Shown in pieces: positions 1 through 25,960 of a stretch of 64,000 bases of DNA (within the stretch, counting starts at the first letter, position 1; each line of letters begins with the position of its first letter). A program made the position numbers and the translations under genes. This DNA is from a virus, in the IMG/VR virus record IMGVR_UViG_3300033146_001994, positions 1 to 64,000 of that record; one strand, written 5' to 3'. The notes below the pieces were generated by a model. It saw only the letters and a list, made by a program, of their open reading frames with translations, had not been told where the DNA came from and did no database searches.

Positions 1-4
1 TATT

Positions 5-205
5 ATGAGAAAATTTAATTTAGAAGCGAAAATAACAATTAGTGTTCATACTGTTGTTGATGCAAATTCACTTGAAGAAGCAATTAAAATTGCAGAACAA
101 AGAGATGATATTTTCCACGCAACATATCAAAATGGCAATGAAGATGAACATTGGATTATTGATGATTTTGATGGTTTACCTATGGATATTCATTTAGAAG
201 AATAA
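5..205 (+). CDS. Small hypothetical protein (putative cassette gene 1)
   Basis: 66 aa ORF whose stop is followed directly by the left arm of repeat element A. Confidence 0.7.
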   Translation: MRKFNLEAKITISVHTVVDANSLEEAIKIAEQRDDIFHATYQNGNEDEHWIIDDFDGLPMDIHLEE

Positions 206-206
206 T

Positions 207-348
207 GCACCACAACGGTAAAGTGTATGGTGCGTTGCCATACAAAGAGATAATGTTCAATCTAATAAAATAAATTTGATATGAGTGATAAAATAAAAAA
301 TACAGGACAAAGTGGCAATGACACTATACACAGTGTTATACACAGTCC
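207..348 (+). repeat. attC-like inverted-repeat element A
   Basis: AAC(214-216)...GTGTATGGTGCGTTGCCA(223-240) pairs with TGGCAATGACACTATACAC(313-331)...GTT(335-337); AAC-to-GTT span 124 nt. Confidence 0.8.
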
Positions 349-486
349 TAATGAATTAGAGCCAGTTTTAGCAAAAATCGAACATATAAACGATTTGGGA
401 AAATCCGAATGGTATGAAGTAGTTTAAAAACATTTGAAGATGGTGAAAAAGTTGTAAAATGGAAATATTGTAAGGATTGTGTATAA
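281..486 (+). pseudogene. Frameshifted small gene (putative cassette gene 2)
   Basis: MSDKIKNTGQ...SEWYEVV* (281-427); another frame continues KTFEDGEKVVKWKYCKDCV* to TAA 484-486, which overlaps the TAAC of element B. Confidence 0.6.
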
Positions 487-618
487 CGATTTGAATATGA
501 AATGTAGGCAATTTGAAACACCTACTTTCAATTACCAACAGAACTTAAATAAAAGAGATAAATTAACTAATTAATAACTTGTTGCCTATATTTTATATTT
601 GTTGTTAGGCAACGTAAA
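474..618 (+). repeat. attC-like inverted-repeat element B
   Basis: AAC(485-487)...GAATATGAAATGTAGGCAA(493-511) pairs with TTGCCTATATTTTATATTT(582-600)...GTT(604-606); span 122 nt. Confidence 0.8.
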
Positions 619-628
619 TTAAAAGATA

Positions 629-817
629 ATGACAAGAAGTGAAGCATATTATCAGATGAAAACATTAGGAAATTTAGTAACTCATAAATCTTTTACGAAA
701 CACGAATTTTTAACTTGGGAACAAAATCAAATTAAAACAGAAGATGGGTATGACTTTTCGTCTCAATTTCATAATTTAAAGCAATTTGAAGATGGTTGGT
801 CGCTTTATGTTGCCTAA
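629..817 (+). CDS. Small hypothetical protein (putative cassette gene 3)
   Basis: 62 aa ORF; stop TAA lies inside GTTGCCTAAC (809-818), the reverse complement of GTTAGGCAAC (604-613) upstream of the gene. Confidence 0.75.
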   Translation: MTRSEAYYQMKTLGNLVTHKSFTKHEFLTWEQNQIKTEDGYDFSSQFHNLKQFEDGWSLYVA

Positions 818-935
818 CTAGATGCTAGAAAACATATTTATTCAAAATGATAAATATGTACAATATAACTTTATATATAGAAAAACTAAAGAAACAAAAC
901 AATATTAATAAATAAACTAATTAATTAAATTTATT

Positions 936-2268: not shown

Positions 2269-2481
2269 ATGGAAAATAAAATAATCAATCAAAAAGCAAT
2301 ATTATATATAGGAATGTTATTCTACTTTATTGGAATAGTGTTACTTATAATAGAATGTGATGCTTTTTCAATAGGAATATCACTTCTAGGAGCATGTTTT
2401 ATTGGAATATCTCTAAGCAACTTAAATAATTTATATAAAGCCTATGAAACAGACAGGAACAATAAGAATAGTTTCCGATAA
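2269..2481 (+). CDS. Small membrane protein
   Basis: 70 aa with two hydrophobic segments. Confidence 0.65.
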   Translation: MENKIINQKAILYIGMLFYFIGIVLLIIECDAFSIGISLLGACFIGISLSNLNNLYKAYETDRNNKNSFR

Positions 2482-3668
2482 TCCAAAGTATTCTAAATTT
2501 ATACAATGGTCTAAAGAGGAAGCATTAGCATTCTTAAATACCTTAGATTCTATTGCACTAGATATTGAAACATCTGGACTAAATGCTCATAAAGATATAA
2601 TATATCTAGTGCAGTTAGGTAATGCAGATATTCAGGTAGTAATAGATGCACTTACTATTGACATAGTATTTTTTAAAAAATTACTAGAAACTAAGGAACT
2701 TGTTATACAAAATGCTCAATTTGGGTTACAATTCCTATTTAAAAAAGATATACAAGTTACTAAAATACATGATGCAATGCTTGTAGAAAGTGTGTTGTAT
2801 GGAGGATATAATAATAAGGCTGATTTAGCAAATATAACTACTTTATTAGATGCAAGTATAGCAAATAAGTACATAACTAGGAGATTTAGTTTAAATGCTC
2901 TAACAACTAAATACTGTAACATCACACTAGATAGAAATATTTACAGTATAATCACATCTATTGGAATAAACAATACAGTTATAGAATATGTAGCAGATAA
3001 CGTAAAATATATGCATGCTATAAAAGAGCAACAGCTTGCTGCTTATAAAAATCATCAAATTGTATACAAGGTAGATGGAAATTTAATTGACTTGGAAAAC
3101 AAAGTTGCTATTGTATTAGCTAAAATGCTTTTTAATGGAGTGCTTGTAGACAAAGAAAAATATAAAAACACTGTTATAGATGAAGTAAACACTGTTATTA
3201 TAGAGAGTATAAAAGAACTTGACAATAATATACTAAACGACAGTAGATTTAAAAAATGGCATGCTTATCAATTAGATTTATTTTCTACAATTAAATCCAC
3301 AGGCATAAATTGGAATAGTAACGTTGTGAAACTTGAAATTTTAAAAGAAATAGATGCTAATATTGAATCGACAGGTACACCCGTTCTAAGAAAACATGTA
3401 AAAGCTCATCCAATTATAGCAAATCTTGTATCATATAGTAAATCTAAAAAATTACAAAGCTCTTTTGGAGAAGCTTTGCTAGAGCATATAGATAGTAGTA
3501 CAGGTAGAATACATTCTAATATACAGCAGATATTGTCTACTGGAAGAATTTCTATGAGTAACCCAAATTTATTACAAATTCCTAGTAAAGGTAAACTGGG
3601 AAAGGTCATTAGAAGCTGTTTTATACCTAGAGATGGATACGATGTGGTAGGTGGCGATTATAGTAGCT
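2444..3668 (+). CDS. polA: DNA polymerase family A, exon 1 (3'-5' exonuclease domain to motif A)
   Basis: LDIETSG, TGRIHSNIQQ, STGRISMSNPNLLQIP, GGDYSS; frame breaks in the middle of motif A. Confidence 0.9.
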
Positions 3669-4219
3669 TAACTAATTAAATTGGCATGTTTATTTATGTA
3701 ATGTATACAACATTTTTTTTGTATATGTGTAAAAATGACATGGGTAAAGTAAATAAAAATGATGAAATGCTTGTAATAAAAGCATATAAAAGCAATTTTA
3801 GTTGTAATTCTATTGCAAAAGAATTCAAAATTAGTACTGAAACAATTGTCTGAATATTTAATAGATAATAACATTTTTTTTTACTAGTACATATACTTCT
3901 AATTTATACAGTATAAATATTCTTAGATATAAAGAAGTAACTAAACTGTACAATTTACTTTACAATAATGCATCTATTTTTCTTAAGCGAAAGAAAGATA
4001 GAATGAGGCTAGCTCCAGTGAAAATTGGAGTTAAAAATATACCTTAAATTCAGGGAAAGTTTGCATGCCAACCCTGAGCAAAATCTATACACCTTAATGG
4101 TAAATAGGATAATGAACTGTCCTTAGGAAAGTATATAGAGATGTGCAACGACTATAATAGGTATGCCCTAACATTAAGTTGAGGGTAAAGGGATAGTCTG
4201 GCTAGAAGAAAACTAGTTG
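3669..4219 (+). mobile_element. Group I intron in polA with degenerate homing endonuclease
   Basis: Core AAATTCAGGGAA(4046-4057), AACCCTGAGC(4070-4079), GCAACGACTAT(~4145-4155), GGATAGTC(~4191-4198); P3 ATACCT/AGGTAT; exon ends in U, intron ends in G; splicing gives DYSSFELAIIAE. Confidence 0.85.
3740..4047 (+). pseudogene. Remnant intron-encoded (LAGLIDADG-type) homing endonuclease
   Basis: N-terminal HTH-like MGKVNK...SIAKEFKISTETIV* and, in another frame, C-terminal LYNNASIFLKRKKD typical of phage LAGLIDADG proteins; middle missing. Confidence 0.6.
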
Positions 4220-4941
4220 TCGAATTGGCTATAATTGCAGAATTATCACAAGACCCGTTGTGGATAAATACATTAAACGATGGTAAAAATTTACACACTG
4301 TTCTATGTGCACAAACTTTTGATATTACAGAAGATGAGGTTAATCATATATTTCCTTATAATAAGGATTTAACTTATAGGGCAGTACAGAAAACGATTGA
4401 TTTTGGATTAGCATATGGTATGTCAAAATTTAAGTTATCAGATACTATAGGTATTTCTGAAAAAGATGCAGAGATACTTATAGAAAAATTCTTTAGTAAA
4501 GTACCTAAAGTAAAACAGTTTTTAACCGTTCTAGGAACATTAGGTAGCAAAAGGGGTTTTATAAAAGTACCTAATCCTTACGGAAGAGTTAGATTTTTCC
4601 CAAAGTTTAATGTAATTGAAAATGAACAGGTAGATTCAAGAACTAAAAATATATGGATGGGGGAAATAAGTAGAGCTTCCATGAATACACCTATACAGGG
4701 AATAAATGCAAACGCTATAAAATTAGCATTGGTAAATGTACAAGCTTATATAGATGAACATAACTACCCTGCTAGTATATTATTAAGTATATATGATGAA
4801 ATTCAAACTGAATGTAAAAAAGAATATTCACAGGAATGGAAAACAATACTTGAGGATATAATGCTAAAAAGTGCTAAAGTATTTATAAAATCTGTTCCAA
4901 TACAGGCAGATTGTGATATACATGATTGTTGGACTAAATAA
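4220..4941 (+). CDS. polA: DNA polymerase family A, exon 2 (motifs A-C)
   Basis: ELAIIAELSQD, RAVQKTIDFGLAYG, NTPIQG, SIYDEI. Confidence 0.9.
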
Positions 4942-4947
4942 AAACTT

Positions 4948-6192
4948 ATGAAAGATAGAGAAAGTATAAATAAAGAACTAAGAGCCATTTATAGAAAATA
5001 TAATTTGCTAAATGGTACTTTTGTTGTTGAAATGGGTACAGGAAAGACTAAACTAGGCATAGATTTAATAAAGGAATATGAGCCTGACACAGTACTTATA
5101 GTTAGTCCTAGTACTAATATTTCAGGAGATACAAAAGAGTTAAATGTGTGGGAAAAGGAGTTTATTAAATGGGGTAATTCTATCAGCAAGGTTACTTATA
5201 TGACTATTAATAAAGCTTATAAATTACAAAATAGTTATTATGATATGATTATTTTAGATGAAGTACATGCTATATTAACTCCTGAGTTTTCCAAAGTATT
5301 AAAAAATAATTCTTTTGGTAGGATTATAGGGCTGACAGGAACACCAGATATTGTAGATAAAAAAGATAAACGATACCTTTATAACACCTTTTGCCCAATC
5401 ATTGCGGTGTATAAAAATGCAGCTAAAGATAGTATTATAAATAAAACCAGAATATTTGTATTTAATTATCGATTAACTAATGATTTAAAAACACTTAGCG
5501 GCAATCCTAAAAATCCATTTAAACAAGGTGAATTGGATAAATATGAATATTTGAATAAAAACGTTCGCAAGCTAGAAAAGCAACTATATTCTAATGGATT
5601 TGAGTATTTTTGGAAAGATTCCATGCATATTTTAAAGGATAAAAAGGCTCCTGATAAGCTAAAAATCCTTGCAGGCTCCTATATTAAGAGTATTCAGAAT
5701 AGAAAAGAATTTTTATTAAGTTTAAAATTAACTGTGGAATATGCAAAAGTTATAGCAAAAGCGGTTCTTGATGATATAAATAACAAAGTTCTTGTATTTT
5801 CTGAAAGAGTTGATGCACTTAGTGAAATTACCTCAAATGCGATTTCATATAAAAATAGTGCACAGCAAAATTCTAAGCTGATTGAAGATTTTAACAGAGG
5901 TACAATACGAATATTAGGTGCTTCTAAAAAACTTACTTTAGGAGAAAACCTAATTGGAGCTAACTATGGTATAATTAGTAATATAGTAGGTTCCTCTGTA
6001 CAATTTGAACAGAAGAAAGGGAGATTGCATAGGCTGTCTGTAAATGAAACTGCTACTATGGTTATTCTTTGCGCAGAAAATACTCAACAAAAAGCATGGA
6101 CACAAAATGCTTTAAAGACAATGGATTCTAAAACAATTGTAACATATAATGACCTTAACCTTTTAATAAAAGATATATGGAAAAATCATTAA
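4948..6192 (+). CDS. Superfamily 2 helicase
   Basis: MGTGKT, ILDEVH, GLTGTP, QKKGRLHR motifs. Confidence 0.85.
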   Translation: MKDRESINKELRAIYRKYNLLNGTFVVEMGTGKTKLGIDLIKEYEPDTVLIVSPSTNISGDTKELNVWEKEFIKWGNSISKVTYMTINKAYKLQNSYYDMIILDEVHAILTPEFSKVLKNNSFGRIIGLTGTPDIVDKKDKRYLYNTFCPIIAVYKNAAKDSIINKTRIFVFNYRLTNDLKTLSGNPKNPFKQGELDKYEYLNKNVRKLEKQLYSNGFEYFWKDSMHILKDKKAPDKLKILAGSYIKSIQNRKEFLLSLKLTVEYAKVIAKAVLDDINNKVLVFSERVDALSEITSNAISYKNSAQQNSKLIEDFNRGTIRILGASKKLTLGENLIGANYGIISNIVGSSVQFEQKKGRLHRLSVNETATMVILCAENTQQKAWTQNALKTMDSKTIVTYNDLNLLIKDIWKNH

Positions 6193-9593: not shown

Positions 9594-10502
9594 ATGGCTT
9601 TAACAGCAAACAAAGCAGACGAGAAAACAACTAAAGAATTTCTGAACTATACAGGAGTAATTCCATTTGAAGTAGTTGCATTTAATCCTGACAGTATAAA
9701 ATTGAATGAATTAGGACTAAATTTTGATGCAAAAAGTCCAATTAGTGATGACACTTTTAATGCAGGGCATAAAAATTATAGTGCTACTTTTTGGTTAAGA
9801 AACGCTAAATTTGCATATAAAAACGGTGAAAATGTTGTAGAAGTAGAAGCAGGAGCTATTCTAACTTCTATATCATTTTATATTGGAGACTCTGTTGCTG
9901 AATCTAAAACAGGTAAAACATTATTTATTAATGGTTATGGTGATACTATATATGCTGAAAGCATAGAGTATATCAAAGACAATTACGAGTGGTTTGATTC
10001 TTTCAAATTAAGAGGTGCTCATAAAGGAGAATCTGATTTATATTTATTCTTACGTGCATATGCAAACCTTAAATATTCTAAAAACGAATCGGATGAGAAT
10101 TGTTTAGAAAATCCTAAACAACTTTTTGAGGATGATACTGAACTTGTAGAGTATATAAATGGTCTTATTAAAGAAACTCCTAAAAGAATTGTATTTTTAT
10201 TAACTGGATTTAAAAATACAGGTACTGATGACAATGGTAATGTTAAAATGCGTCAAGTTGTGTATAAAAAATTCTACCAAAAGAAATCACAGTTTAATTC
10301 AGCAGTTTCTAATTTTACTAGTTTTATTAATTGTACTAGAATTAAAAAGAATAAAGAAGATAAAATTGCTGAAAGAGAGCCTAAAATGGACTTCTATACT
10401 ATAGAGCCACAAGGATTTGACTATAGCACTATTTGTAGTAAATTAGAAAAAACAGAAGATGTTAATGATGATTTATATAGCGGTGCAGAAGATATGTTTT
10501 AA
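9594..10502 (+). CDS. ssb: Putative single-stranded DNA-binding protein
   Basis: YTG...VAFNP N-terminal motif, acidic C-terminus ending DMF, position between ATPase and primase as in crAss-like phages. Confidence 0.65.
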   Translation: MALTANKADEKTTKEFLNYTGVIPFEVVAFNPDSIKLNELGLNFDAKSPISDDTFNAGHKNYSATFWLRNAKFAYKNGENVVEVEAGAILTSISFYIGDSVAESKTGKTLFINGYGDTIYAESIEYIKDNYEWFDSFKLRGAHKGESDLYLFLRAYANLKYSKNESDENCLENPKQLFEDDTELVEYINGLIKETPKRIVFLLTGFKNTGTDDNGNVKMRQVVYKKFYQKKSQFNSAVSNFTSFINCTRIKKNKEDKIAEREPKMDFYTIEPQGFDYSTICSKLEKTEDVNDDLYSGAEDMF

Positions 10503-21994: not shown

Positions 21995-22533
21995 ATTTAC
22001 TTGACTATGTAGATGACGATATAAAAATTTCACCTGAACTTTTAGTTTTACTGCCTTTTAAGAAATTATGGGAAAGTAATAAAAGTAAAAGTAAAGCTGC
22101 TAAAGAGATTGCATATATATACTTCATGGTAAATAAAACTAATGAACTAGGATTCTGGCAAGAAGCAGATGCAACTGTTAGGCATAAGGAAATAAAAACC
22201 TTTATTTTTGGTAAAGATAGTAAATGGACTGCTTCTAAAGAGGTAATTGAAGCTAAACATTTCTATAGGAATCAAATCACACCTTTTGCTACAGGGCTCT
22301 TAGAAGATGCTATTAAGGCTGCTAATAGCATTAGAGAATATCTACGTGATGTTGACTGGAATTTAAAAGATAAATCTGATAAATTCACTTACGATGTAAA
22401 TAAAGTCAAAGAGTTATTGTTAAAACTGCCTGATATAGATAAAGCTATTACAGAGTTAAGAAATAGAGTTAAACAGGAAGAAAGTAATGATGCAGATAAA
22501 CGTGGTAATAAAAAGATAGGAATGTATGAATAA
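21991..22533 (+). CDS. Conserved protein upstream of TerL (terminase small subunit candidate)
   Basis: PFKKLW..KSKSKAAKEIAYIYFM; overlaps the TerL start. Confidence 0.55.
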   Translation: MNLLDYVDDDIKISPELLVLLPFKKLWESNKSKSKAAKEIAYIYFMVNKTNELGFWQEADATVRHKEIKTFIFGKDSKWTASKEVIEAKHFYRNQITPFATGLLEDAIKAANSIREYLRDVDWNLKDKSDKFTYDVNKVKELLLKLPDIDKAITELRNRVKQEESNDADKRGNKKIGMYE

Positions 22534-25500
22534 CTTTAATTCTGTACAAACACAGATTACTACAGAGCTTTTAGAAGAACTTCCTAAAGATGTTGTAGAT
22601 TCTTTAAATGACCATCTTGAAAATATTGAATTCATACGTAATTTAATAAATCCTAATAGAAAATTTGCAAAAGATTTAGATAGAGATGAAGAGGGTAAAA
22701 TCTTAGTAAATATAACAAATCCTCACATACTAGAAGATACTGACTATTTTAGACCTCTTGCTATAGAATTTGAAATGAATGGCAAATACACTAGTATATT
22801 TCCTAATCCTGCAAGAACTTCTGAATATAGAAAGTTTTGGGATGAACAAAGAGATAGATGTATAAATGGTTATGTTAGAGAATCAGATGGAGAGTGGATT
22901 CCTGGAAGTTTTTACTTCTATTTAAACTTTTGTAGAATACCTGTTGCAGTTGCAAAAACTACTAAACAAAAACCATCTAAAAAAAATAAGAGAAGTAAAG
23001 CAGGCAAAACAGTTGAAGCTGATAGAGTATTAAAACATCCTGATTTTTGGGATGGGGATTATTTATATTATCATTATTTAGACCAAGCTAAAAAAGCAGG
23101 TAAACATGCTAATGTGTTAAAAACTAGAGGTAGAGGATTTTCTTTTAAAGGCGGTGAAATGTTAGCTGAGGGCTATTTCTTTTATGATAATAGTAATAAC
23201 TATGCTGTCGCAGCACATGAAAACTTCTTAACAAATGATGGGCTTTTAACTAAAGCTTGGGATATTATAGATGATATAAATATAAATACCCCTTTTACTA
23301 AAACAGCATTGCCTAAATCACCAATGAAAAGAGTAGCTTCTTATGTAGATGCTAATGGAAATATTAGAGGTACTAAATCTGCTGTTATTGGCATATCTTT
23401 AAAGAATGATATTGAAAAACATCGAGGAAAAAGAGGAAGGATAATGCTATTTGAAGAATCAGGTGTTTTTCCTAAATTAAACACAGCATGGGATATTGCT
23501 AGAAACTCCTTTGAACAGGATGACTTAGTATTTGGATTAATGATATCTTTTGGTTGTGTATGCAAAGGTACTAAAGTATATACTAATAAAGGTGAATATA
23601 TTAACATCGAAGATTTACAACAGCCTGATGGTATAGTAGGGTTTGGAGAAAATAATATTTCTAAAGAGCCTATAGTGTATATGCAGCCTCCAGCTAAAAA
23701 AGAATGTGTTAGAATAACTACTTCATATAGAACTTTGGAATGTAGTATAGACCATCCAATTTTAATAAGAACAACTGGAACACATAGAAAAGGATTTGAT
23801 AAAGTTGAAACATACTTTTCTAAAAAAACAAGTAAATTTATTACATGTAAAACTAAATCTAAAGTAACATACCATAAAAAAGTATGGAGAGATGCAGAAA
23901 AACTTAAAGAGGGTGATTATTTATTAACAGCGGATATTATTGATATATGGGGAACTGATAAATTATTTGATGCTAGACTTGTTGGGATGCTTATAGGGGA
24001 TGGTTCATATGGTATGAGAAAACATTATACTAGAATGGAATTTAAAACGCCTGTTTTTTCTAATTGTGATGACGAATTAAATAAATATGTCTATACTAAA
24101 TATGACGCTGTAACTGAAAGTTCATATATTACTAAATTAGGAAAACATTATAAAGAAACTAGGATTAGAAAATTAATTCCTATTTTAAAAGAAGTGGGAA
24201 TAGCAGGGCAATCTAAAACGCAAAAAAGACTGCCTAGTAATTATATGTACCTAACTAAAAAAGATTCACAAGAGTTACTAGCTGGTCTATTTGATACTGA
24301 TGGCAGTATAATGTTAGATGTAAACAATAGAGCTTCTATTACAATAAGCCAATGTAATATAGAAATTATAAAGCAAATAAAAACCTTGTTAGAAAAATTT
24401 GGTATAGTAGGGTTTATAACTACAGTAAAGCCGTCTTTAAAAGAGGGTAGAAAAGATAGAAACTTACACTACAGATTAATTATTACAACAAAACAAAGTA
24501 TAAGGAATTTTAAAAAATATATTCCTATAATAATTAAATATAAAATAGCAAAACTGGATAAAATTTTAAATTCTAAAGAGTTTTCGACAGATTGTAGAAA
24601 ATATGACATATTTAAAGGTATTAGGGAAGAAAGAGTAACTAAGGTAGAATATATAGGGAAAAAAGATATTTATAATCTAACAGCAGGAAACACACACACA
24701 TATTTAGCTAACAATATAATTACACATAATACGGGAGGAACTAAGGGCAATAGATTTGAAAGTGCTAAAGAGTTCATATACAACCCTGTAGGATATGGTA
24801 TACTGCCTTTGAAAAATGTATTTGATAAATCAACTGGTAGTGGAATGTGTAGCTTTTGGTCAGGTATTTATCTAAACACCGCAGGTGCATATGATAAAAA
24901 TGGTAATTCTGATGTAGTAAAAGCATTAATAAGGATTCTATATAAAAGGTGGGAAGAAGTACAAAGTGGAATTAAAGCAGATACTATCTTGCAAAGAAAA
25001 GCTGAGAATGCTATTACCCCACAAGAAGCAATATTAAGTACAAGTGAAAACATATTTCCTGTACAGGATTTAAAAGATAGATTAGCAGAAATTAAAACTA
25101 ACCTAGGTGCATTTATATCAAAGCATTATATAGGCTTGATGGGAGTAAAAGATGGAGAAGTGGTATTTAACCAAAAACCTGAATTAACCCCTATTAGGAA
25201 TTATCCTGTTGATATAGATTCAGATAGAACAGGTGCAATTGAAGTATTTAAAATGCCTGCAAAGGGAACTAAAGAACTGTCTATTGGAGAAAGGTATGTA
25301 ATAAGTGTCGACCCTGTAAGATATGATAAAGTGTTATATAGTGTCTCACTTGCTTCTATATTTGTATTTGATTTATGGCTAGATGAAATTGTGGCTGAAT
25401 ATACATGTAGACCTGAATCTATTGAAGATTTTAATACTCAACTATATAGATTAGCCATTTGGTACAATGCTGAAATTAACTATGAAAACGATATTACAGA

Positions 25501-25960
25501 TATATTTACATTTTTTAGAAATAAAAATGCACTTTATTATATAACAGATACTCCTGAAATGATTAAATCTTTAGAAATAGCTAAAGAGGGTAGAGGTAAT
25601 AGACAAAAAGGAACTCCATCAAGTGTTAAATTAAATAATCAAGCTAGACTTTGGTTAACCCAATGGTTAAAATCTCCTGTCAAAAGTGATACTGAGGATA
25701 ATGTAACATTGAATTTACACAAAGTACCTAGCATAGGATTATTAGAGGAATTAATTGCGTGGAATATTGATGGAAACTTCGATAGAATTTCTTCAATGGG
25801 AATACTTATGGTTAGTAGAAAAGATAAATTATTGTACTTAGAAAGTAATATGACACAGGAAGTGGCTGAATATGAAGAAGATGAATTTTTCAATGATGAC
25901 TTAAGTATTACTAACCAAAATGAGAAAAGTATGAAAAATTTTGATTTAAAATTTTTATAA
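22526..25960 (+). CDS. terL: Terminase large subunit (intein-containing)
   Basis: KTRGRGFSF Walker A-like, FEESG Walker B, FG|TGG, nuclease VDP, YEN, GNFDRIS. Confidence 0.95.
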   Translation: MNNFNSVQTQITTELLEELPKDVVDSLNDHLENIEFIRNLINPNRKFAKDLDRDEEGKILVNITNPHILEDTDYFRPLAIEFEMNGKYTSIFPNPARTSEYRKFWDEQRDRCINGYVRESDGEWIPGSFYFYLNFCRIPVAVAKTTKQKPSKKNKRSKAGKTVEADRVLKHPDFWDGDYLYYHYLDQAKKAGKHANVLKTRGRGFSFKGGEMLAEGYFFYDNSNNYAVAAHENFLTNDGLLTKAWDIIDDININTPFTKTALPKSPMKRVASYVDANGNIRGTKSAVIGISLKNDIEKHRGKRGRIMLFEESGVFPKLNTAWDIARNSFEQDDLVFGLMISFGCVCKGTKVYTNKGEYINIEDLQQPDGIVGFGENNISKEPIVYMQPPAKKECVRITTSYRTLECSIDHPILIRTTGTHRKGFDKVETYFSKKTSKFITCKTKSKVTYHKKVWRDAEKLKEGDYLLTADIIDIWGTDKLFDARLVGMLIGDGSYGMRKHYTRMEFKTPVFSNCDDELNKYVYTKYDAVTESSYITKLGKHYKETRIRKLIPILKEVGIAGQSKTQKRLPSNYMYLTKKDSQELLAGLFDTDGSIMLDVNNRASITISQCNIEIIKQIKTLLEKFGIVGFITTVKPSLKEGRKDRNLHYRLIITTKQSIRNFKKYIPIIIKYKIAKLDKILNSKEFSTDCRKYDIFKGIREERVTKVEYIGKKDIYNLTAGNTHTYLANNIITHNTGGTKGNRFESAKEFIYNPVGYGILPLKNVFDKSTGSGMCSFWSGIYLNTAGAYDKNGNSDVVKALIRILYKRWEEVQSGIKADTILQRKAENAITPQEAILSTSENIFPVQDLKDRLAEIKTNLGAFISKHYIGLMGVKDGEVVFNQKPELTPIRNYPVDIDSDRTGAIEVFKMPAKGTKELSIGERYVISVDPVRYDKVLYSVSLASIFVFDLWLDEIVAEYTCRPESIEDFNTQLYRLAIWYNAEINYENDITDIFTFFRNKNALYYITDTPEMIKSLEIAKEGRGNRQKGTPSSVKLNNQARLWLTQWLKSPVKSDTEDNVTLNLHKVPSIGLLEELIAWNIDGNFDRISSMGILMVSRKDKLLYLESNMTQEVAEYEEDEFFNDDLSITNQNEKSMKNFDLKFL
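23555..24730 (+). mobile_element. Intein (392 aa) with LAGLIDADG homing endonuclease
   Basis: Starts CVCKGT; block B SIDHPI; VGMLIGDG and LAGLFDTDG; ends NNIITHN followed by Thr; removal restores FGTGG. Confidence 0.95.

Follow-up and report, generated by a model that had tools for sequence, protein, structure and literature searches.

The first 860 nucleotides of IMG/VR virus record IMGVR_UViG_3300033146_001994 carry three small open reading frames (ORFs) separated by two imperfect inverted repeats, and the question raised by this locus is whether a phage may keep its small accessory genes as exchangeable cassettes, in the manner of an integron. A preliminary description of the sequence had proposed such a cassette array in a crAss-like phage. 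The window (the whole stretch of 64,000 nucleotides presented, taken from the start of a circular record of 87,547 bp) was therefore analysed together with the remainder of the record, other phages and prokaryotic genomes. Positions 1-860 of the window probably represent the downstream end of a ~7.1-kb integron-like cassette array in a marine crAss-like phage. The cassette logic is found to be real, as seen from the private paired ends of the cassettes, the hairpins between them and the boundary-matching gain and loss of cassettes in relatives.

The first 63 bases of the record are identical to its last 63, because of which the record was taken as a circular assembly; the sequence upstream of window position 1 is therefore the end of the record (positions on the complete record are hereafter referred to as genome positions). 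The assignment to the crAss-like phages is borne out by the major capsid protein, which is 34-36% identical to those of the Crassvirales members cr111_1, cr85_1 and IAS virus over 95-98% of its length, and by matches to the terminase, portal and capsid PHROG families of the capsid module. The habitat of the phage is marine rather than gut, on small shares only: the DNA sequencing runs carrying it are from marine sediment and vents, with shares of at most 0.15. No RNA sequencing run carrying the phage was listed.

The phage's own inter-unit elements were used to build a covariance model (hereafter R1). The features of the array that lie in the window are given below, one per line, with window coordinates.

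5..205, + strand: cassette gene 1, 66 aa, without an assigned family; its unit begins before the window, at genome 87462
204..216, + strand: right end of unit 1, AATGCACCACAAC; stop codon TAA at 203-205
214..337, + strand: hairpin element A, from AAC 214-216 to GTT 335-337; 124 nt; arms 223-240 and 313-331
281..427, + strand: ORF of 48 aa, which begins in the loop of element A and crosses the GTT junction
335..487, + strand: unit 2, apparently a decayed cassette; ends 335-349 and 473-487; 3' part paralogous to unit 3
485..606, + strand: hairpin element B, from AAC 485-487 to GTT 604-606; 122 nt; 70-nt loop
604..818, + strand: unit 3; ends 604-618 and 804-818; contains ORF 629-817
629..817, + strand: ORF of 62 aa, phrog_3474; stop codon inside CCTAAC
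816..859, + strand: array end; last AAC at 816-818 without a hairpin element after it; no R1 match past 619

The limits and lengths first reported for the two elements were recovered exactly. In element A, 223-232 and 322-331 form an unbroken run of 10 pairs, which grows to about 19, with one bulge, when the element is folded as single-stranded DNA (ssDNA); it scores 101 bits with R1, being itself a training copy of that model. The 18-bp stem of element B (494-511 with 582-599; 16 Watson-Crick and two G.T pairs) shows compensatory changes relative to the copy at genome 84433-84554.

The array extends far beyond the window. It occupies genome 81,208-87,484 and window 1-818, which is 8% of the genome, in agreement with the expectation that further units would lie upstream. 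The GTTGTGGTGC-like motif predicted to precede ORF 5-205 is also present, 11-23 nt upstream of the window start: the left end of unit 1, GTTGTGGTGCGTT at genome 87462-87474, is the reverse complement of window 204-216, with 12 Watson-Crick pairs and one G.T at position 11. Within the window, the unit ends pair as had been claimed, 335-349 with 473-487 and 604-618 with 804-818 (15 nt, 93%), and such complementarity exceeds that of shuffled sequence genome-wide. A scan of the whole genome for cassette ends, defined as GTT-anchored 13-mers with a reverse complement 40-1500 nt downstream at no more than one mismatch, returned 11 matches, whereas shuffled sequences averaged 4.0 and never exceeded 8; eight of the 11 flank ORFs within the 7.1-kb array.

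Eleven units were identified in all, nine of which pair at 12 or more of the 13 end positions and two more weakly. The private 13-nt ends of the nine units have the form GTT-N6-CGTT at the start and AATG-N6'-AAC at the end, and all but one of the 11 units have a G.T pair at position 11, the G being in the left end and the T in the right. The elements between the units follow a common plan: AAC, five to six loosely paired bases (often GGTGTG), a stem of 10-18 bp, an A-rich loop, the right arm, T-rich bases and GTT. Seven elements of the array span 122-124 nt, and the AAC/GTT pairs are kept in 7-9 of nine own copies.

The middle unit of the window differs from what was first supposed. It had been read as an intact gene, and a stop codon had been placed within TAAC for both downstream units; the latter is true only for ORF 629-817. 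ORF 281-427 begins in the loop of element A and ends with a stop codon at 425-427, 58 nt short of the AAC of unit 2, and the unit is broken. The TAA within TATAAC (484-486) ends a separate frame of 22 codons, the DNA of which resembles the 3' end of unit 3 (25 nt, 84% alike), and the middle unit thus looks like a decayed paralogue of the third. In-frame read-through of the TAA at 425-427 was ruled out by translating the frames. A core TAGGCAA/TTGCCTA was observed four times in this part of the window (505-511, 581-587, 606-612 and 809-815), at the tip of the element B stem and at either end of unit 3. This would allow an alternative fold, a 7-bp stem with an 18-nt loop, between the right arm of B and the beginning of unit 3. 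The same alternative arrangement, with TAGGCG, occurs at the genome 84,433 copy. The right arm of element A is directly repeated in the adjoining unit start (TATACACAGT at 325-334 and 337-346).

Covariation provides the evidence for the hairpins as conserved structures. When nine of the phage's own elements were aligned, 83% of the cells pair against 33-52% with a slid partner, and 11 of the 18 inner pairs covary, with changes on both sides. Searching the 87.5-kb genome with R1 at E-values up to ~1 gave 13 elements, all on the + strand and all within the array, including four that were not training copies (50.5, 35.1, 21.7 and 16.2 bits). An outside alignment was made of 44 R1 matches (42 distinct) which are not training copies and are all from other contigs. 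In this alignment, which is fitted to R1 and hence favours pairing, 94.2% of the cells pair against 31-55% with slid partners and 16 of the 18 inner pairs covary; the contrast with the slid controls and the covariation remain striking in spite of this fit. The AAC/GTT pairs are A-U in 40/40 copies for both such pairs and C-G in 38/40, and three positions are near-fixed as G.U (41/41, 34/41 and 36/40). The loops are 2-75 nt in length and have no strongly conserved word. Among 27 units lying between adjacent R1 matches on the other contigs, 18 have ends paired at 11 or more of 13 positions (shuffled-partner control: mean 2.7, maximum 9), and position 11 is G.T in 16 of these 18.

The proposal that a covariance model of the elements should be run against Bacteroidota phages and genomes was taken up. 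Through a KilA-N protein encoded in the array, IMG/VR contig 3300020171_000037 was reached; its lambda-type terminase makes it a phage of another kind. At least 10 R1 matches lie on this contig, all on a single strand; its units are tiled and share the private GTT.../...AAC ends as well as the G.T at position 11, and a C5 DNA methyltransferase and RtcB are among the cassettes. A pattern derived from three phages retrieved 18 IMG/VR contigs, of which 11 have R1 matches, numbering 39 in total and 13 on one contig. The same pattern was applied to prokaryotes, with one genome per species; since the 66 loci obtained are at or below a rough chance estimate, only the 26 R1-positive loci were used. 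Twenty-four of these are labelled Bacteroidota (Flavobacteriales, Cytophagales, Marinilabiliales and Bacteroidales), and several are on contigs of hundreds of kilobases.

Three further observations concern sequences common to these arrays. The identical unit start GTTGTGGTGCGTT is found on unrelated cassette genes at genome 83,400 and 87,462 and at position 1758 of contig 3300020171_000037; the same type of site thus serves different cargo. Upstream of ORF 86,961, a non-coding stretch (genome 86,834-86,938) is 74% identical to positions 3355-3462 of the unrelated phage contig 3300033388_004194. This stretch begins with the unit-start type GTGTTGTGTGTCTG, which is present in contig 3300020171_000037 too.

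The movement of cassettes is seen most directly in cultured phages. The recombinase beside the array of contig 3300020171_000037 has relatives of 27-30% identity in cultured Polaribacter phages, among them the phage Freya, an element of which (Freya_10 positions 10064-10213) resembles element A. Ten Freya isolates from one host are 99-100% identical except for a block upstream of the integrase. In comparison with Freya_10, this block is without 4.94 kb (12 genes) in Freya_1, 4.1 kb in Freya_2-4, 3.2 kb in Freya_5, 0.9 kb in Freya_8 and a single 307-nt cassette in Freya_9, while in Freya_6 and Freya_7 a different cassette of ~440 nt replaces the 3.2 kb. Every junction was read, and in all six configurations both breakpoints are at an AAC boundary; the parental sites have little in common beyond AAC. 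Five of the six configurations use AAC|ACCCC..., 47 nt ahead of the integrase start codon. Gain, loss and replacement of whole cassettes exactly at AAC are thus shown in cultured relatives.

Each block deleted in Freya has the hairpin first and ...AAC last; a hairpin is therefore carried along with the gene that follows it, and the exchange is placed in the AAC which, on the coding strand, lies 5' of the hairpin. The earlier expectation that gene gain and loss would map to the site boundary is correct for the cultured relatives, with the position being AAC and not GTT, and the crossover at G|TT of the + strand, which had been suggested by analogy with integrons, is contradicted by all six Freya configurations. 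Freya and its sister species Danklef have in common a 1169-bp two-gene block of 99.6% identity, which starts AAC|GTT, ends ...CCAAC| and has unlike DNA on either side. Danklef_1 has an annotated integrase remnant of 132 nt at 5849-5980, its homology to the Freya integrase starting from ~350 nt into the gene; thus a close relative of Freya has lost the enzyme and kept the cassettes. The paper describing Freya gives, in the part available, only a size range and one integrase (PMC8776804), and the terms 'integron', 'variable region' and 'genome variants' are absent from what was available of its main text. No published account of the Freya cassette polymorphism was found in the literature checked, that part of PMC8776804 included.

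These junctions bear on the possibility that the units are regulatory cassettes, i.e. promoter/terminator modules similar to the promoter early stem-loop (PeSL) elements of T4-type phages (Arbiol 2010, PMC2839356; see also Comeau 2014, PMC4122927), shuffled by homologous recombination between the elements. The setting is the same, with small accessory genes swapped modularly in a hyperplastic region that has repeated intergenic stem-loops; PeSL circular intermediates (mini-circles) are documented in the available part of the PeSL study (PMC2839356), and most of the array-bearing phages have no recombinase. However, PeSLs are sigma-70 promoters and terminators that recombine by homology, according to the same portion of that study (PMC2839356), and neither signal is enriched here. 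Matches to sigma-70-like promoters number 37 against 46 +/- 6.8 in shuffles, in a scan that omits Bacteroidota promoter types, and terminator-like sites number 2 against 1.9. The Bacteroidota -7 motif occurs before two of the phage's 12 GTTs and before one of 44 from elsewhere; a promoter in the right arm was considered on account of this motif in element B and in the element before ORF1, and was rejected with the motif before only these two of the 12 GTTs. The loops, variable in length and devoid of a strongly conserved word, also speak against regulatory modules, and the Freya junctions have only the 3-nt AAC in common, which is too short for homologous exchange. Every gene here has its own private paired ends, and shuffling by homology leaves these covarying ends unexplained. 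Regulatory cassettes of this type are thus quite an unlikely explanation of the array.

A role of the structures in RNA is suggested by the mismatches. In a tally with strand-symmetric scoring, mismatches on the coding strand are nearly all G.T, with 10 G.T against one A.C in the stems and 10 against one in the unit ends, and invariant G.U positions are typical of structured RNA. Hairpins and paired message ends might accordingly serve mRNA processing, stability or translation, with the AAC rearrangements as a side effect. On the other hand, no Rfam family is matched at E-values up to 1, a U-tract terminator signature was not found, and such a role leaves the AAC-bounded Freya indels and the recombinase-adjacent array ends without explanation. 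G.T pairs also stabilise ssDNA hairpins, and A.C mismatches of the other strand could mark the strand. An RNA-level function is therefore considered very improbable as the reason for the arrangement. The G.T bias fits folding of the coding strand as DNA, and we infer the active strand to be the + strand, although the A.C mismatches of the other strand at the G.T positions could equally mark a strand.

The enzyme that might act on these sites is indicated by the ends of the arrays. Arrays of relatives terminate at AAC|, as does that of the crAss-like phage, and in three lineages (contigs 3300020171_000037 and 3300033388_004194 and Freya) this AAC| is directly upstream of a recombinase of ~270 aa on the same strand as the array. 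The protein has an N-terminal SAM-like domain, and none of the usual catalytic residues is missing from the three aligned sequences. Its best curated match is an archaeal XerA/integron-integrase model, under the cut-off of that model; the array-adjacent recombinase of one relative (271 aa) scores 82.8 bits with TIGR02249 against a cut-off of 265, and none of the three phage recombinases reaches the IntI model cut-off. On these sequence comparisons, the partner enzyme in the relatives is a compact Xer-like recombinase and not an integron integrase. None of five Bacteroidota genomes with elements has an integron-integrase match over the cut-off, and one of the five has an Xer-like gene 1.4 kb from an element. 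A profile of the three recombinases gave poor patterns and only two loci of 24% identity, which were left out of account.

The similarity to integrons, and especially to clusters of attC sites lacking integron-integrases (CALIN), is nevertheless extensive. Single-gene cassettes lie between imperfect hairpins in which only AAC and GTT are invariant, every cassette begins with a sequence complementary to the one at its end, the terminal loops vary in length, and in the relatives the array ends at a fixed site by a tyrosine recombinase of the Xer/IntI branch and includes DNA methyltransferase cargo. Classical attC sites range from ~57 to 141 nt in length, have an R box stem of 7 bp and carry bulged L-box bases that mark the bottom strand, along which a classical integron presents the crossover, the hairpin, the cassette, attI and then the integrase. 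The order on the coding strand here (crossover AAC, hairpin, GTT, cassette and then, in the relatives, an attI-like site and a sense recombinase) matches this classical bottom-strand order.

The array could accordingly consist of classical attC sites, i.e. a true CALIN served by a host IntI and exchanging cassettes with host chromosomal integrons. A CALIN is defined by two or more attC sites without a nearby integrase, and the phage, with 13 elements and no recombinase, would fall under this definition if its elements count as attC; the AAC/GTT boxes, the length of 122-124 nt and the cassette-end complementarity are all as in attC. Clusters of attC sites in phages are indeed already published (Qi 2023, PMC9892861): in the available part of that report, 17 were predicted and IntI1 recombined five of six tested sites, one of them from Polaribacter phage P12002L, which has a predicted CALIN with two methyltransferase genes and of which IntI1 recombined one of two sites. 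R1 has eight intergenic matches in P12002L, on the gene strand and several of them adjoining methyltransferase genes; some of these may coincide with P12002L_attC1 and P12002L_attC2 of that report.

Several differences stand against these likenesses. The integron-integrase cut-off is reached in none of the five element-bearing Bacteroidota genomes and by none of the three phage recombinases, the 271-aa array recombinase of one relative being far below it at 82.8 bits. Bulged bases are replaced by three near-invariant G.T wobbles at set positions, and the cassette-end stem is of 13 bp and not of the 7 bp of an R box. The genes are on the folded strand, which is flipped in relation to the classical layout: a classical attC follows its gene on the coding strand, whereas here the crossover is 5' of the hairpin, as seen in Freya. 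Most arrays, that of the crAss-like phage included, are without any recombinase. It is therefore unlikely that these are classical attC sites served by IntI. In the literature checked, no published account was found of a Xer-like (non-IntI) partner, of arrays of this length, of wobbles at fixed positions, of private ends of 13 bp or of genes in the flipped orientation.

Other hairpin-based systems are less similar. The IS200/IS605 and REP/RAYT elements need a Y1 transposase, a family (PF01797) without a match in the phage genome. In systems of the CTX-phi type, the host Xer recombines a folded ssDNA hairpin that imitates a two-armed core site and has an imperfect central region, and a host enzyme can thus serve an element that encodes none. 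What is moved in CTX-phi-type systems and in the Xer-site gene modules of plasmids is either an entire genome, by integration, or modules exchanged between dif-like sites, and neither is known to have cassettes with private ends in a tandem array.

In the explanation favoured here, each cassette is one small accessory gene with its first 13 nt pairing with its last 13. On ssDNA of the coding (+) strand, which is presumably the substrate, the hairpin and the cassette ends would fold into a two-armed core site, and this folded site would serve a tyrosine recombinase as attC serves IntI. Strands would be exchanged inside the AAC that lies 5' of the hairpin, and cassettes would be excised, inserted and swapped as whole units. 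A recombinase, rather than any other process, would thus be what makes the AAC junctions. An array without a recombinase, such as that of the crAss-like phage, would either depend on an enzyme supplied in trans, from the host or from a co-infecting phage, or be a decaying relic.

The variation in the array of the crAss-like phage itself was also examined, and the support from this phage is thinner than that from its relatives. A homologue of ORF1 on a metagenome contig (53% amino acid identity) is followed by a hairpin type found 3 kb away in this phage, and the break is at a cassette boundary, within ~25 nt. The earlier suggestion that homologues elsewhere should respect the cassette boundaries holds for this contig and fails for a second one, as stated below. 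Read comparison was restricted to assembled contigs of the runs on genome 80,001-87,547, a stretch which does not contain the window's own units, and cannot reveal circles. Among the matches listed, the run contigs cover the array only partly, 84-97% continuing into unlike sequence, and one contig of a run (X1) joins AAC 84433-84435 to 82571. A backward joint from 83,757 to 80,963 was set aside as most likely a repeated motif.

A number of observations weigh against the cassette explanation. As the preliminary description had noted for the window, no integrase is present: neither the tyrosine recombinase family (PF00589) nor, at E-values up to 1, the Y1 (HUH) transposase (PF01797) has a match in any frame of the phage. 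A tyrosine recombinase was found in only one of eight R1-positive viral records tested and in one of four such records that are at least 90% complete. Bulged (extrahelical) bases are absent, the best stems being bulge-free. Several ORFs begin within hairpins (281; 84082), which together with the broken unit 2 is suggestive of decay. As ssDNA, six of the nine elements fold no better than shuffles; element A (z -2.1), element B (z -2.5) and the copy at 84,433 span z -2.0 to -2.5 and the - strand of the elements folds worse than the + strand, so that the fold energies alone are weak evidence. The second ORF1 homologue, on a high-GC contig, is without such boundaries, and two contig variants of a run (X2) break off-boundary, with gaps of 251 nt (85,570-85,820) and 145 nt (82,101-82,245). 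Finally, no cassette of the crAss-like array was found in contigs 3300020171_000037 or 3300033388_004194, and the protein of ORF 629-817 is without a close relative in IMG/VR.

Outside the array, an A+T-only 10-bp hairpin (832-859) precedes a dUTPase-like gene (936-1460), named from a reading of its translation and not from a family search. No close relatives of the phage were obtained by a DNA search of the phage collection, nor in IMG/VR through ORF 1475-2164, a strict element pattern or the ORF 629-817 protein; the lead offered by ORF 1475-2164 was dropped, with matches of only 30-33% in temperate phages of the LoVEphage type whose locus has no such array. A DNA polymerase I-like gene (window 2444-4941) looks split into ORF 2444-3679 and ORF 4225-4941, and the gap of ~550 nt, which contains the small ORF 3686-3853, may be an inserted element or an intervening sequence. 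The large terminase (window 22526-25960; 1144 aa) matches a terminase family over residues 734-1125 only and has a weak helicase-family match at residues 481-685. A protein of 316 aa (genome 76,273-77,223) has ~13 tandem repeats of 23 residues (..DGSKEWYINGKLHRDNDKPA..), which look MORN-like.

It is tentatively proposed, as a real possibility, that Bacteroidota and their phages share an integron analogue not dependent on IntI, in which a Xer-like enzyme of ~270 aa would act on coding-strand hairpins with three fixed G.T pairs, exchange would occur in AAC, arrays without a recombinase would be serviced in trans, and unrelated families of phages (crAss-like, Freya-like and P12002L-like siphoviruses) would hold a pool of accessory and anti-defence cassettes in common. 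In bacteria, rapid gene capture is classically the work of integrons, of which only a few short, predicted attC clusters have so far been reported from phages; here, that logic is found as long arrays in several unrelated families of marine Bacteroidota phages and in Bacteroidota genomes. The proposal is directly testable, as Freya and its Polaribacter host are cultured and ten isolates already differ by whole cassettes. For the crAss-like phages, it raises the question whether a strictly lytic phage without a recombinase can borrow one. More generally, the arrays would explain in mechanistic terms how small accessory and anti-defence genes are replaced so quickly in the hyperplastic regions of phage genomes.

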